Of a stretch of DNA of 64,000 bases, positions 34,535 to 35,944 are shown in pieces (the stretch's first letter is position 1; each line of letters starts with the position of its first letter). The notes under the pieces were generated by a model. It did no database searches, was not told the DNA's origin, and saw nothing but the letters and a program-made list of their open reading frames with translations. Location: contig JAHDRW010000028.1 of assembly GCA_018433085.1 (NCBI GenBank), forward strand, positions 4,804 to 68,803, in the 5' to 3' direction. The position numbers and the translations under genes are program-made. The stretch is from Deltaproteobacteria bacterium (lineage in GTDB: Bacteria; Desulfobacterota; Desulfomonilia; UBA1062).

Positions 34535-35944
34535 TCATCCCCGGGGAATGAGTGAGAGCAGGTACTCCCATACCTCCAAAGTCCTGTTCAGGGCCTCGTC
34601 GTCGTGCTGCATGCACGTGTACATCCGGGTCCCTGCCAGGGTGCACAGCCCCTGGCCCAGGGTGACGGTCTGGTAATCGTCAGCGGCCTGCTTGCGCGCC
34701 ATGATCTGGGTGAAGGCGTCCGGGGAAGAGAGGTCCACGGCAAAGAACGCGGTGGTCACATAGTGCATGATGGGCCCGAAGTTATAGACAAAAAAGCCCA
34801 GGTCCTTCCGCGTGGCGAACAGATCGTTCATGGCCGCGGTGAGCCTGTCCGCGTAGGCGGTTGCCCTGCCTACGGCATCGTGCTCTTCCATGAGCCGTAA
34901 GGCGTGGTAGCAGGCCGCCGTGGAAATGGGATTGGCCGCCAGGGTTCCGCCGATATAGATCTTCTCGCCCATGCCCCCCTGGCAGACGCTCATCACGTCC
35001 TTCCTGCCGCCCACCGCGCCCGCCGAGGGGAACCCGTGGGCGATGATCTTGCCCAGGACGGTGAGATCGGGCGTGATGTTGAAGTATCTCTGCGCCCCGC
35101 CCATGTCCAGCCTGAAGCCGGTCACCACCTCGTCGAAGACCATCAGCGAGCCGTAGTGGTCGCACAGCTCGCGGATGCGCGTGTTCCACTCCGGGTGGAC
35201 CGGGTGGGTGCCGGACTCCCCGCCGATGGGCTCCACCATGACGGCGGCAACCCCGCCCTTGTCTGCATTGTCCTCGAACGCCTTTTCCAGGGTTTCGAAG
35301 TCGTTGGGCGGCACGTCGATGATGTGCGCATAGCTCTCGGAGGTGATGCCCCGGGAATTGAGCGGTCCGGTGCCCGGCACGTGCAGGGAATAGACCATCT
35401 GATCGGACCACCCGTGGTAGCTCCCGCCTATCTTGATGATCTTCTGCCTTCCCGTGAATGCCCGCGCGATCCTTACGGCCGCCATGTCCGCCTCGGTGCC
35501 GGACTGGAGGAAACGGACCATCTCGACACCCGGCATGTGCCGGATGATCTCGCCTGCGGCCAGGAGCTCGTATTCCGAGGTCAGCCCGGTGGCAGGGCCC
35601 TTCTCCCGGATGATCTCGATGATTTTTTCGTCCAGGGGGTCGAAGGCGTGGCCCAGGATGATGGGGGCGCCGCACATGAGGTAATCCACATACCCGTTGT
35701 TGTCCACGTCCCACATGCGGTAGCCTTTGGCCCGGTCCATGGCGATCGGGAAGGGCTTGTTCTGGCTCAGGTTGTGCTCCACGCCCCCGGGAATAAGTCC
35801 TTTGCCCCTCTCGAAGAGCTCCAGCGAGCGCCGGTTCCGCCGGTGATAGATCTCCCGTTCTCTGTGGAGCCTGTCATCGGGGATCGCCCTCACGGGGTGT
35901 GAGAGGATCTCTTTGTTCCGTCCTACGATTTCCTGGTATTCCAT
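34535..35944 (-). CDS. class-III PLP-dependent aminotransferase/aminomutase, glutamate-1-semialdehyde 2,1-aminomutase-like
   Basis: ATG at 35944 after a GGAGGA SD. Motifs SGTEADMAAVRIARA, GSYHGW, VMVEP, MVFDEVVTGFR. PLP lysine is in the GSAM-type context LGKIIAHGFPSAGAVGGRKDVM. Confidence 0.85.
   Translation of the reverse strand: MEYQEIVGRNKEILSHPVRAIPDDRLHREREIYHRRNRRSLELFERGKGLIPGGVEHNLSQNKPFPIAMDRAKGYRMWDVDNNGYVDYLMCGAPIILGHAFDPLDEKIIEIIREKGPATGLTSEYELLAAGEIIRHMPGVEMVRFLQSGTEADMAAVRIARAFTGRQKIIKIGGSYHGWSDQMVYSLHVPGTGPLNSRGITSESYAHIIDVPPNDFETLEKAFEDNADKGGVAAVMVEPIGGESGTHPVHPEWNTRIRELCDHYGSLMVFDEVVTGFRLDMGGAQRYFNITPDLTVLGKIIAHGFPSAGAVGGRKDVMSVCQGGMGEKIYIGGTLAANPISTAACYHALRLMEEHDAVGRATAYADRLTAAMNDLFATRKDLGFFVYNFGPIMHYVTTAFFAVDLSSPDAFTQIMARKQAADDYQTVTLGQGLCTLAGTRMYTCMQHDDEALNRTLEVWEYLLSLIPRG

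Follow-up and report, generated by a model that had tools for sequence, protein, structure and literature searches.

A HemL-like transaminase shares a conserved gene cassette with an FGGY kinase and a RuBisCO-like protein and may act on sphingoid bases

Glutamate-1-semialdehyde 2,1-aminomutase (HemL; TIGR00713; Synechococcus GSAM, PDB 2gsa/3fq8) has a fold-type I, class-III scaffold in which Ser29 and Arg32 (Synechococcus numbering) reportedly bind the substrate carboxylate and Glu406 excludes alpha-carboxylates. HemL-derived enzymes of the GSAM subgroup that perform ordinary intermolecular transamination include FumI (6hbs), D-phenylglycine aminotransferase (2cy8), beta-transaminases (2yku, 4ao9) and GntE; FumI, the fumonisin aminopentol aminotransferase, deaminates a sphingoid-like 2-amino-polyol. 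In Bacillus methionine salvage (MtnK-MtnB-MtnW-MtnX-MtnE), a kinase, a class II aldolase-family enzyme, a RuBisCO-like protein (RLP), a phosphatase and a transaminase act on a 1-phospho-2-keto compound with a hydrophobic tail. In eukaryotic-type sphingoid degradation, a DAGK-like sphingosine kinase phosphorylates the C1 hydroxyl of the long-chain base and a PLP enzyme, sphingosine-1-phosphate lyase, then attacks the 2-amino group. The sphingosine regulon of P. aeruginosa (SphR, SphA, SphBCD) includes the AraC regulator SphR, the sphingosine channel SphA, a COG4313-family protein (PMC4493636), and an aerobic pathway whose enzymes are a threonine-aldolase-like protein, a cytochrome c and a periplasmic oxidase; the product of this metabolism was still unknown in 2025 (PMC11893366).

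The gene under study lies in the window, by which is meant the whole 64-kb stretch of DNA analysed, inside an open reading frame (34535..35998, (-)) that contains both peptides quoted in the sequence-only reading, LGKIIAHGFPSAGAVGGRKDVM and SGTEADMAAVRIARA. Because AGGAGGATGGAGG precedes ATG 35944, the coding sequence is most likely 34535..35944 (-), encoding a HemL-like class-III PLP aminotransferase of 469 aa. This assignment draws on Pfam, NCBIfam and PDB matches, an alignment and a tree. Pfam Aminotran_3 (PF00202) scored 171.5 bits (cut-off 30.5), and the top NCBIfam matches were two HemL models, both below cut-off (NF000818, 309.8 vs 398; TIGR00713, 303.4 vs 527.3), while GntE gave 262 bits. 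All top PDB matches were GSA aminomutases, with E-values from 7.7e-70 to 1.2e-58; the GSAM-subgroup transaminases, matched at 105-187 bits, are all farther from the protein than HemL, none comes with an RLP or FGGY kinase, and the substrate proposed here differs from theirs in being phosphorylated. The PLP lysine (LGKIIAHG), the Asp of VFDEV and the SGTEA phosphate loop align with the HemL structures and are retained across the transaminase family; LGKII, the FDEV Asp, SGTEA and YHG are conserved with HemL. The gene appears intact and is predicted to encode a real, catalytically intact enzyme from a HemL-derived subfamily. The only other class-III aminotransferases in the window (58842..61536) are 27-31% identical to it and not HemL-like.

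The HemL carboxylate-binding motif with Ser29 and Arg32, GGVNSPVR, reads GGVEHNLSQ in the window protein and GGV[EQ]HNL in all aligned family members, whereas GGV[NS]SPxR is kept in the 19 HemL-type representatives. The column of Glu406 (PSxFEAxF motif of HemL) holds Arg throughout the family in a MAFFT alignment, which compares sequences and not structures; the surrounding LAGTRMYTCM is, with GGVEHNLSQ, a motif of the family. Compared with HemL, the lid loop is 2 residues shorter and of other sequence, identity is about 33-40% where representatives can be aligned, and the context is a catabolic operon instead of hem genes. A neighbour-joining tree against HemL, as the sequence-only reading had proposed, put the family in its own 45-leaf clade with zero HemL members. 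No canonical hemL was found within the 64-kb window, and Pfam scans of its plausible genes gave no hem biosynthesis gene. Because HemL scores are below cut-off, Ser29/Arg32 and Glu406 are replaced and the clade is separate, the transaminase is predicted not to be glutamate-1-semialdehyde aminomutase; the Arg at the Glu406 position would argue against an aminomutase and for a transaminase of the ordinary intermolecular type. HemL is the closest characterised family, as had been judged by eye, and the reported absence of hem genes nearby was confirmed.

The operon's first gene encodes an FGGY-family kinase (35923..37584, (-); 553 aa; Pfam FGGY_N + FGGY_C), the stop codon of which (TAG, 35925..35923) lies 22 nt inside the transaminase gene; in view of this overlap between the kinase 3' end and the transaminase start, the coupling of the two genes is considered real. 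The RLP gene (33168..34478, (-); 436 aa; Pfam RuBisCO_large + RuBisCO_large_N) starts at ATG 34478, which has a strong Shine-Dalgarno sequence, AAGGAGGG, and leaves a 56-nt gap to the transaminase gene; an alternative in-frame ATG at 34538 would overlap the transaminase stop codon (ATGA), but it lacks a good ribosome-binding site. The translational linkage claimed earlier for both neighbours holds for the kinase and is looser for the RLP. An orphan protein (32011..33090, (-); 359 aa) has the fold of the Zn phospholipase C (PLC)/S1-P1 nuclease superfamily and its zinc-ligand motif, H-x3-D-x5-H plus H-x3-E, and is a predicted cytoplasmic Zn-dependent phosphoesterase.

The best NCBIfam match of the RLP was MtnW, with both models below cut-off (NF007095, 329.6 vs 409; TIGR03332, 292.5 vs 513.6). 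It gave 251 bits to the MtnW structure 2oek; its identity is 36% with G. kaustophilus MtnW and 26% with spinach RbcL. Residues were numbered on what we take to be the reference RbcL sequence, and the numbering agreed at 21/21 positions. E60, T65, W66, N123, K175, K201, D203, E204, H294, S379, G380, G381, G403, G404 and the loop-6 Lys are kept in 37/37 RLP orthologues, and in the same alignment T173 is replaced by M, K177 by C, R295 by M, H298 by A or G and H327 by V. The protein differs from bona fide RuBisCO (forms I-III) in the change of K177 and of the second phosphate site, R295/H298/H327, and from MtnW in that Lys98 (G. kaustophilus numbering), reportedly a catalytic residue, is Asn in 37/37 orthologues. 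The distal pocket is predicted to be hydrophobic in place of the second phosphate site, with a near-complete RuBisCO catalytic set kept.

Across genomes, 38 loci with a transaminase orthologue of at least 70% identity were examined, within a census of 85 loci in all. The RLP was adjacent in 38/38 and the FGGY kinase in 36/38, the remaining 2 being cut by contig ends; the orphan PLC-fold protein was present in 26/38, a linked class II aldolase in 20/38, an MFS gene in 21/38, a TetR gene in 19/38 and a homologue of the AraC regulator described below, in the same position, in 9/38. Hosts of these loci were Syntrophales, Desulfomonilia, Spirochaetota, Leptospirales and Actinomycetota MAGs, plus a contig annotated Chloroflexi in one source; more distant relatives of the transaminase occur in Chloroflexi, Actinomycetota, Thermoplasmatota and Asgard archaea, and all cassette carriers are uncultured MAGs. 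FGGY kinase, transaminase, RLP and Zn phosphoesterase form a conserved four-gene, probably catabolic, cassette in which the transaminase is the second enzyme; frequent additions to it are outer-membrane channels, an MFS transporter, a class II aldolase and a regulator of the TetR or AraC family. In a sister clade (44-48% identical), an aldolase-transaminase-kinase arrangement occurs without the RLP (aldolase in 19/24 and kinase in 18/24 loci), and aldolase and transaminase are naturally fused in relatives P0245 (757 aa), P0247 (720 aa) and, partially, P0341. A KdsR-like (3-ketodihydrosphingosine reductase) SDR (307 bits) was found in 14 loci, an SCP2 lipid-carrier gene inside aldolase-transaminase operons, and COG4313 outer-membrane channels in the operon in 5 loci. 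Lone transaminase-aldolase pairs were also seen, e.g. in L040 between glycogen and pantothenate genes, and offered no substrate clue. No description of the cassette was found in the literature searched on RLPs, FGGY kinases, class II aldolases or sphingoid degradation, and it is absent from the methionine-salvage review PMC6302742.

Members of the FGGY kinase family otherwise act on sugars or polyols. The best NCBIfam match of the window kinase, XylB (TIGR01312), reached 270 bits, below the cut-off of 380.25 for a xylulokinase; GntK was also among the best models, and the best PDB match, E. coli xylulokinase (XylB), gave only 148 bits. It is 54.1-60.3% identical over 520-523 aa to FGGY kinases linked to a sphingosine-1-phosphate lyase homologue (L086-L089 and L003), and so belongs to the group 'FGGY kinases operon-linked to sphingosine-1-phosphate lyase', which is defined in this analysis by >50% full-length identity. 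Joined to the cassette in Spirochaetota loci are a second FGGY kinase and a lyase homologue that matches S. thermophilum sphingosine-1-phosphate lyase with 625 bits (E 1e-186), and 4/4 other sampled contigs have an FGGY kinase gene immediately upstream of the lyase homologue. A lyase homologue is adjacent in only 4/85 loci, from about two independent lineages, and tblastn found no sphingosine-1-phosphate lyase gene in the window. Full-text literature searches found no paper linking FGGY kinases with this lyase.

Divergent from the operon is an AraC-family regulator (37966..39204, (+); Pfam Arabinose_bd + HTH_18; these are ORF limits, the true start probably lying about 200 nt downstream). This arrangement, together with the COG4313 channels of some orthologous operons, resembles the P. 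aeruginosa sphingosine regulon (PMC3900636, PMC4493636), the enzymes of which are different. The GliR paper gave no link. Convergent with the operon, and only tentatively associated with it, is a gene for a FadL/TodX-type outer-membrane channel (30603..31940, (+); Pfam Toluene_X, 63 bits) with a signal-peptide-like N-terminus; such a neighbour was otherwise seen only in close relatives L006 and L011. Upstream of the AraC regulator, and of uncertain association, are Pfam-assigned genes for an amidohydrolase (39280..40704, (-)) and a DUF362 protein with a Tat-like (twin-arginine) N-terminus (40783..42069, (-)); this pair beside the cassette is conserved only in L007 and L011, and in other loci a different amidohydrolase (Amidohydro_3) is in an operon with the class II aldolase. 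Promoter and terminator scans gave counts at shuffle level.

From the gene context, the cassette most likely breaks down sphingolipid-type amino-alcohols. We put the probability at roughly 0.45 that the kinase acts on a sphingoid 2-amino-1,3-diol, that the transaminase gives a 1-phospho-2-oxo-3-hydroxy head group and that the RLP and the phosphoesterase or aldolase process the product. The FGGY kinase would phosphorylate the C1 hydroxyl of the 2-amino-1,3-diol head group, most likely of a sphingoid long-chain base, and the transaminase would then pass the C2 amino group to a 2-oxo acid, giving a 3-hydroxy-2-oxoalkyl 1-phosphate (CH2OP-CO-CHOH-R) that would mimic C1-C3 of ribulose bisphosphate (RuBP). 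Where a C4 hydroxyl is present (phytosphingosine), the class II aldolase could yield DHAP and a fatty aldehyde; otherwise the RLP may enolise the product at its RuBisCO-type Mg/carbamate site while the hydrophobic pocket accommodates the alkyl tail, and the PLC-fold enzyme may hydrolyse the phosphate ester of the RLP product. The gene order of the cassette equals this proposed reaction order. The first steps would parallel those of eukaryotic-type sphingoid degradation, and a close lyase homologue shares operons with kinases from the subfamily of the window kinase; unlike there, the kinase is FGGY and not DAGK-like, the PLP enzyme would be a transaminase producing a keto-phosphate and not a lyase, and the RLP, PLC-fold phosphoesterase and class II aldolase have no counterpart. 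The sequence-only reading had taken the enzyme for a neofunctionalised HemL-like paralogue that acts together with the kinase and RLP, and this is supported by the missed HemL cut-offs, the replaced substrate residues, the separate clade and the cross-phylum synteny. Its further suggestion of an aminomutase or transaminase acting on other substrates in a sugar-phosphate-type operon stands as to the non-haem role and is narrowed to a transaminase and, because the gene context points there, to sphingoid head groups over plain sugar phosphates.

Against the sphingoid scheme, tblastn with the accessory genes found no aldolase, SDR, MFS or lyase homologue in the window, and the scheme leaves the chemical fate of the RLP product and the later phosphoesterase step without explanation. 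The small number of lyase-adjacent loci and the usual sugar or polyol substrates of FGGY kinases also count against it. The same tblastn search gave no TetR, porin or COG4313 homologue in the window. Ethanolamine/glycolaldehyde assimilation, AI-2 (DPD) catabolism, 4-hydroxythreonine or glucosaminate-type amino-acid sugars and iminosugar biosynthesis each account for part of the gene set; they were dropped because none accounts at once for the lyase linkage, the hydrophobic RLP pocket and the genes for lipid carriers and channels. An EEP-family gene of L071 was also set aside as a sphingomyelinase clue, its sole PDB match being staphylococcal sphingomyelinase at E ~1e-3 in a single locus.

Use of the cassette for breaking down a hydrophilic compound instead, either a 2-amino-polyol or an amino-deoxy sugar (for example a 2-amino-2-deoxy-alditol or 6-deoxy amino sugar), is unlikely. 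Here the transaminase would yield a 2-ketose, which the kinase would phosphorylate and the class II aldolase would then split into DHAP and an aldehyde, as happens in the fucose and rhamnose pathways, with the RLP and phosphoesterase as a side branch. An FGGY kinase with a class II aldolase is the classical deoxy-hexose route, and the best models, XylB and GntK for the kinase and FucA, Ru1P aldolase and AraD for the aldolase, agree with it. MFS sugar-type transporters, glycosidases, GFO/MocA and ThuA adjoin sister-clade operons, and the glycosidases (GH1, GH4, GH127, fucosidase), GFO/MocA oxidoreductase and ThuA of several Chloroflexi loci are as compatible with a hydrophilic amino-sugar or amino-alditol as with a glycolipid. 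However, this route accounts neither for the kinase subfamily's link to sphingosine-1-phosphate lyase nor for the SCP2 lipid carrier, the channels of the FadL and COG4313 types and the hydrophobic character of the RLP's distal pocket, and we know of no free 2-amino-alditol that is a common environmental substrate.

A methionine-salvage-like pathway for 5-methylthio- or 5-deoxy-pentoses is quite improbable. It would have the kinase form a (thio)pentulose 1-phosphate, the aldolase-family protein serve as MtnB or Ald2, the RLP as an MtnW-type enolase or R. rubrum-type isomerase, the orphan as an MtnX-like phosphatase and the transaminase form methionine from the keto acid. MtnW enolases are indeed the nearest relatives of the RLP by the 2oek and NF007095 scores given above, the hydrophobic distal pocket is as in MtnW, a class II aldolase family member is linked, and RLP followed by phosphoesterase mirrors MtnW-MtnX. 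The correspondence with the Bacillus genes breaks down in detail: the kinase is FGGY and not MtnK, the phosphatase has a PLC and not a HAD fold, the transaminase is class III and not class I, and the RLP misses both MtnW cut-offs and lacks Lys98 in 37/37 orthologues while carrying the RuBisCO residues E60, N123 and loop-6 Lys. The cassette has no isomerase or dioxygenase; no MtnA, MtnK, MtnP, MtnN or MtnD was annotated among the conserved neighbour families of the loci, and Rfam searches, one covering the entire window and a permissive one on the operon, gave no SAM riboswitch or other match. The organisms are anaerobes without the O2-dependent step, and an aldolase-transaminase fusion would be senseless if the two steps were early and last.

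Still less probable is another amphiphilic amino-polyol lipid as substrate, e.g. 35-aminobacteriohopanetriol or an aminopentanetetrol lipid head group, in which an omega-transaminase would turn a terminal CH2-NH2 to an aldehyde (the reverse of HpnO), with RLP isomerisation, phosphorylation and aldol cleavage to follow. HemL-like transaminases such as MxcL, GntE and PigE often take aldehyde/primary-amine pairs, the outer-membrane channels belong to types that serve hydrophobic substrates, and an HpnA-like SDR lies directly upstream of the kinase in 5 loci; but that SDR scores 228 bits to TIGR03466, below the cut-off of 367.65, the reaction order does not fit the gene order and the lyase-kinase linkage is left unaccounted for. 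The chance that the transaminase is the organism's genuine HemL, making 5-aminolevulinate for tetrapyrroles in an unrelated operon, is next to nil despite HemL being its closest characterised family and providing all top PDB matches, given the two missed cut-offs, the loss of Ser29, Arg32 and Glu406, the separate clade at ~33% identity to HemL and the strict synteny with RLP and kinase away from any hem genes.

For the sphingoid scheme, the RLP raises a further prospect. Many form-IV RuBisCO-like proteins have no assigned role, and the clade described here is unusual in its nearly full RuBisCO catalytic set. Because the residues for enolisation, CO2 addition, hydration and cleavage are all kept (K201 carbamate, D203, E204, K175, H294, N123, E60, loop-6 Lys), there is a slim chance that the RLP truly carboxylates a monophosphate substrate or cleaves a C-C bond in it. 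If so, RuBisCO chemistry on the 3-hydroxy-2-oxoalkyl 1-phosphate would give 3-phosphoglycerate and a fatty acid; this would be an anaerobic, CO2-dependent way to dismantle sphingoid bases, and no form-IV protein would have shown carboxylase activity before.

The label 'glutamate-1-semialdehyde 2,1-aminomutase' on such genes (JGI names, some source pipelines) is in all likelihood wrong and would inflate the tetrapyrrole capacity predicted for MAGs. Recombinant proteins of the cassette make three questions testable: how bacteria and archaea break down sphingoid bases, especially under anoxic conditions, what form-IV RuBisCO-like proteins of unassigned role do, and from which kinase the sphingosine-1-phosphate lyases of bacteria receive their substrate. 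Since the MAG collections searched show the cassette to be widespread, in Syntrophales, Desulfomonilia and Spirochaetota, it may matter for lipid turnover in anoxic carbon cycling.

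The transaminase gene (34535..35944, minus strand) is the second of four consecutive minus-strand genes, following an FGGY kinase gene (35923..37584) and preceding genes for the RuBisCO-like protein (RLP; 33168..34478) and for a 359-aa orphan protein with no family match (32011..33090); an AraC-family regulator gene (37966..39204) is divergent from this operon. The boundaries and the coupling to the kinase proposed in the sequence-only reading therefore stand, since AGGAGGATGGAGG precedes the transaminase ATG at 35944, which lies 22 nt inside the 3′ end of the kinase gene; both peptides quoted in that reading were found in the translation. 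Its translational linkage to the RLP was looser, with a gap of 56 nt to the transaminase gene from the better-supported RLP start, ATG 34478. The true RLP start is uncertain, because a second ATG in the same frame, at 34538, would form an ATGA overlap with the stop codon of the transaminase gene (34535..34538) but lacks a good ribosome-binding site, while ATG 34478 has a strong Shine-Dalgarno sequence. As had been noted by eye, hem genes were absent: no hem biosynthesis gene was recovered when the plausible genes throughout the 64-kb window were scanned with Pfam. The closest loci were L011, which belongs to a Deltaproteobacteria MAG and is 90–98% identical throughout at the amino-acid level, and L006, from Syntrophaceae UBA1062; the source of the window is therefore a Syntrophales-like anaerobe.

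Elsewhere in the window, a second amine-type cluster (55814..62331, plus strand) contains genes for alanine dehydrogenase (55814..56941), an Amidohydro_3 protein (57153..58790), tandem class-III aminotransferases and a TetR regulator (61693..62331). Of these two aminotransferases, that encoded at 58842..60260 carries the PLP lysine (FIAKSISGG), whereas in the one at 60274..61536 the equivalent residue is Glu (IVGEAITGG), which suggests a possible non-catalytic partner subunit. A 570-aa protein without a Pfam match is encoded at 27196..28908 (minus strand); it begins with a signal-like segment, contains several hydrophobic stretches, and has a long middle region that is charged and repeat-like. 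At 339..3005 (plus strand), the genes of an ABC transporter (SBP_bac_11 binding protein, permease and ATPase) precede one for an FmdE-family protein that has a treble-clef zinc finger, an arrangement resembling a molybdate/tungstate uptake operon. At 17949..22699 (plus strand), the genes for a calcineurin-like phosphoesterase and, after it, a 1190-aa AAA_27 protein look like an SbcCD-like nuclease pair.

By similarity, the nearest characterized family to the transaminase is HemL (glutamate-1-semialdehyde (GSA) 2,1-aminomutase): NCBIfam HemL models were its top matches, and its top 14 PDB matches were all GSA aminomutases. Four tests indicate that it is not a HemL member. Its scores fell below the cut-offs of both NCBIfam models (309.8 vs 398 and 303.4 vs 527.3). 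Where HemL has GGV(N/S)SPVR, in which Ser29 and Arg32 bind the substrate carboxylate (Synechococcus structure), the transaminase reads GGVEHNLSQ; GGV[EQ]HNL was present in every aligned relative, and HemL-type representatives in the same alignment kept the canonical motif. The column of Glu406 in HemL PSxFEAxF, which takes the place of the α-carboxylate-binding Arg of ordinary class-III transaminases, is Arg in the sequence alignment (LAGTRMYTCM). A phylogeny against HemL had been proposed as a check on the view of a neofunctionalized HemL paralogue; in a neighbor-joining tree of 153 sequences, built without support values, the family, made up of the window clade and its sister clade (44–48% identity), formed a 45-leaf clade containing no HemL-motif sequences; these grouped in 23 leaves of their own. 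The family was about 30%–34% identical to representatives of HemL. Canonical HemL function is essentially excluded by sequence. The PLP lysine, FDEV aspartate, SGTEA loop and YHG are intact, so the transaminase should be catalytically active, and the Arg that the alignment shows to be regained favors an ordinary transaminase with two substrates over an aminomutase.

Homologues of the transaminase at 66–89% identity were plentiful, coming from metagenomes and MAGs only. Eighty-five loci around its relatives, all from MAGs, were compared by tblastn and clustering of neighboring ORFs, with genes called by a simple longest-ORF heuristic. Among the 38 loci with a transaminase at ≥70% identity, the RLP gene was present in all 38, the kinase in 36 (the remaining two end at contig edges), the fourth gene in 26, an MFS transporter in 21, a class II aldolase/adducin-family gene in 20, TetR in 19, an SDR in 14, AraC in 9 and a COG4313 outer-membrane channel in 5. 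In the sister clade (24 loci, mostly Anaerolineae), the order was TetR, aldolase, transaminase, (MFS), kinase, with the aldolase in 19/24, the kinase in 18/24 and the RLP in only 2/24. Three natural fusions (database proteins P0245, 757 aa; P0247, 720 aa; P0341, partial) join an N-terminal aldolase/adducin domain through an Ala/Pro-rich linker to a C-terminal HemL-like transaminase domain. The robust core is therefore transaminase, kinase and aldolase; the RLP and fourth gene are a paired add-on.

The RLP was closest to MtnW-type enolases of methionine salvage (251 bits and 36% identity to 2oek), scored below both MtnW cut-offs, and had Asn in 37/37 orthologues in the column of Lys98, the catalytic lysine of MtnW. 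Residues were numbered on a spinach RbcL reference, whose numbering was confirmed at 21/21 positions. The clade keeps E60, T65, W66, N123, K175, K201, D203, E204, H294, S379, G380, G381, G403 and G404, and its Lys in the loop-6 motif GGK[GA], which is absent from MtnW, is invariant; T173 is changed to Met, K177 to Cys, R295 to Met, H298 to Ala/Gly and H327 to Val. From these kept and changed residues, the first phosphate site and the C2/C3 catalytic machinery look RuBisCO-like, and the second phosphate site has become a hydrophobic pocket.

No Pfam domain was found in any of 199 homologues of the fourth protein, for which the only name given by any source was "hypothetical protein." An AlphaFold2 model from 33 sequences was confident (pLDDT 83.5, pTM 0.89). 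Invariant H183-x3-D187-x5-H193 aligns to the PLC zinc ligands H118/D122/H128, and invariant H220-x3-E224 has the spacing of PLC H142/E146 (numbering of the PLC reference confirmed at 9/9 ligand positions). A signal peptide is absent, and the protein is read as a predicted cytoplasmic zinc phosphoesterase with the PLC fold.

The decisive lead on the substrate came from four Spirochaetota loci (L003, L004, L030 and L031), in which a second FGGY kinase gene and a "Pyridoxal_deC" gene are followed by the transaminase-RLP genes; the "Pyridoxal_deC" product matched S. thermophilum sphingosine-1-phosphate lyase at 625 bits (E 1e-186) and the human enzyme at 450 bits. In 4/4 unrelated contigs sampled (Desulfobacteraceae, Chloroflexi and two others), an FGGY kinase gene (527–528 aa) lies 45–95 nt upstream of the lyase homologue. 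These kinases are 54–60% identical to the window kinase over ~520 residues, whereas the top match of the window kinase among solved FGGY kinases, E. coli xylulokinase, gave only 148 bits. On this adjacency and similarity, the kinase subfamily is most simply read as making the lyase substrate, a 2-amino-3-hydroxyalkyl 1-phosphate. The conserved two-gene unit, with the kinase directly 5′ of the lyase homologue, was seen in MAGs of Desulfobacteraceae, Chloroflexi, Spirochaetota and others (L086 5370–8494; L087 5324–8509; L088 5372–8524; L089 5362–8515; L003 3743–6899).

Several individually weak features point towards a lipid substrate: the SDR of 14 loci, whose closest model is 3-ketodihydrosphingosine reductase (307 bits vs a cut-off of 400); an SCP2 lipid-carrier gene between aldolase and transaminase; COG4313 channels within the operon, SphA, the sphingosine channel of P. 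aeruginosa, being a member of that family (PMC4493636); a FadL/TodX channel adjoining the operon in the window; an ENPP-type phosphodiesterase in locus L005; and amidohydrolases adjoining the cassette. The divergent AraC regulator of the window is another such feature, being placed like SphR of P. aeruginosa (PMC3900636).

In locus L071, an endonuclease/exonuclease/phosphatase-family gene (11199–12191) lies immediately 3′ of the transaminase-kinase pair, and the sole PDB sequence matches of its product were to S. aureus β-haemolysin, a neutral sphingomyelinase (E ~1e-3), a similarity in one locus that is too weak to count. Two other stretches of the window hold lipid-related genes. That at 3330..6178 (minus strand) encodes a 3-hydroxyacyl-CoA dehydrogenase, an enoyl-CoA hydratase and a LolA-like protein; that at 51544..53877 encodes an MMPL/RND transporter containing a domain of the sterol-sensing type, and L086 likewise has an MMPL gene near the lyase.

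The main alternative is a hydrophilic amino-alditol or amino-sugar, as an FGGY kinase with a class II aldolase matches the classical fucose/rhamnose scheme, and glycosidases, GFO/MocA and ThuA genes adjoin several Chloroflexi operons, although these could equally take off glycolipid head groups. An HpnA-like gene, present in 5 loci, hints at aminohopanoid catabolism, but this would leave the lyase link unexplained. A methionine-salvage-like pathway is disfavored, as the RLP lacks MtnW Lys98, no conserved neighbor family except the aldolase-family gene is annotated as a salvage enzyme, no riboswitch was found with Rfam in the whole window or in a permissive operon scan, and an aldolase-transaminase fusion would be senseless.

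For a sphingoid base, we infer every step that follows. The kinase would phosphorylate the C1 hydroxyl, and the transaminase would convert the C2 amine to a ketone, giving CH2OP-CO-CHOH-R. With a 4-hydroxyl (phytosphingosine), this product would be the formal aldol adduct of DHAP and a fatty aldehyde, which a class II aldolase could cleave; this would explain the adjacency and occasional fusion of aldolase and transaminase. Lacking the 4-hydroxyl, the product could not undergo retro-aldol cleavage and would be enolized by the RLP. Its head group would copy C1–C3 of ribulose bisphosphate on an alkyl tail, which would match the kept and altered RLP residues exactly. The PLC-fold enzyme would strip phosphate from the RLP product, and the gene order kinase, transaminase, RLP, phosphoesterase is the proposed reaction order. 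After enolization, the RLP step could be carbonyl migration, an MtnW-like enolase reaction following C3 oxidation, or phosphate elimination; genuine carboxylation with cleavage to 3-phosphoglycerate and a fatty acid, the more radical case, has a small chance.

Full-text literature searches returned no description of the cassette and no link of FGGY kinases to sphingosine-1-phosphate lyase or of an RLP to sphingolipids. Bacterial sphingoid-base catabolism is still to be worked out, even in P. aeruginosa (PMC11893366). The protein families are all known; their combination and the inferred chemistry are new.
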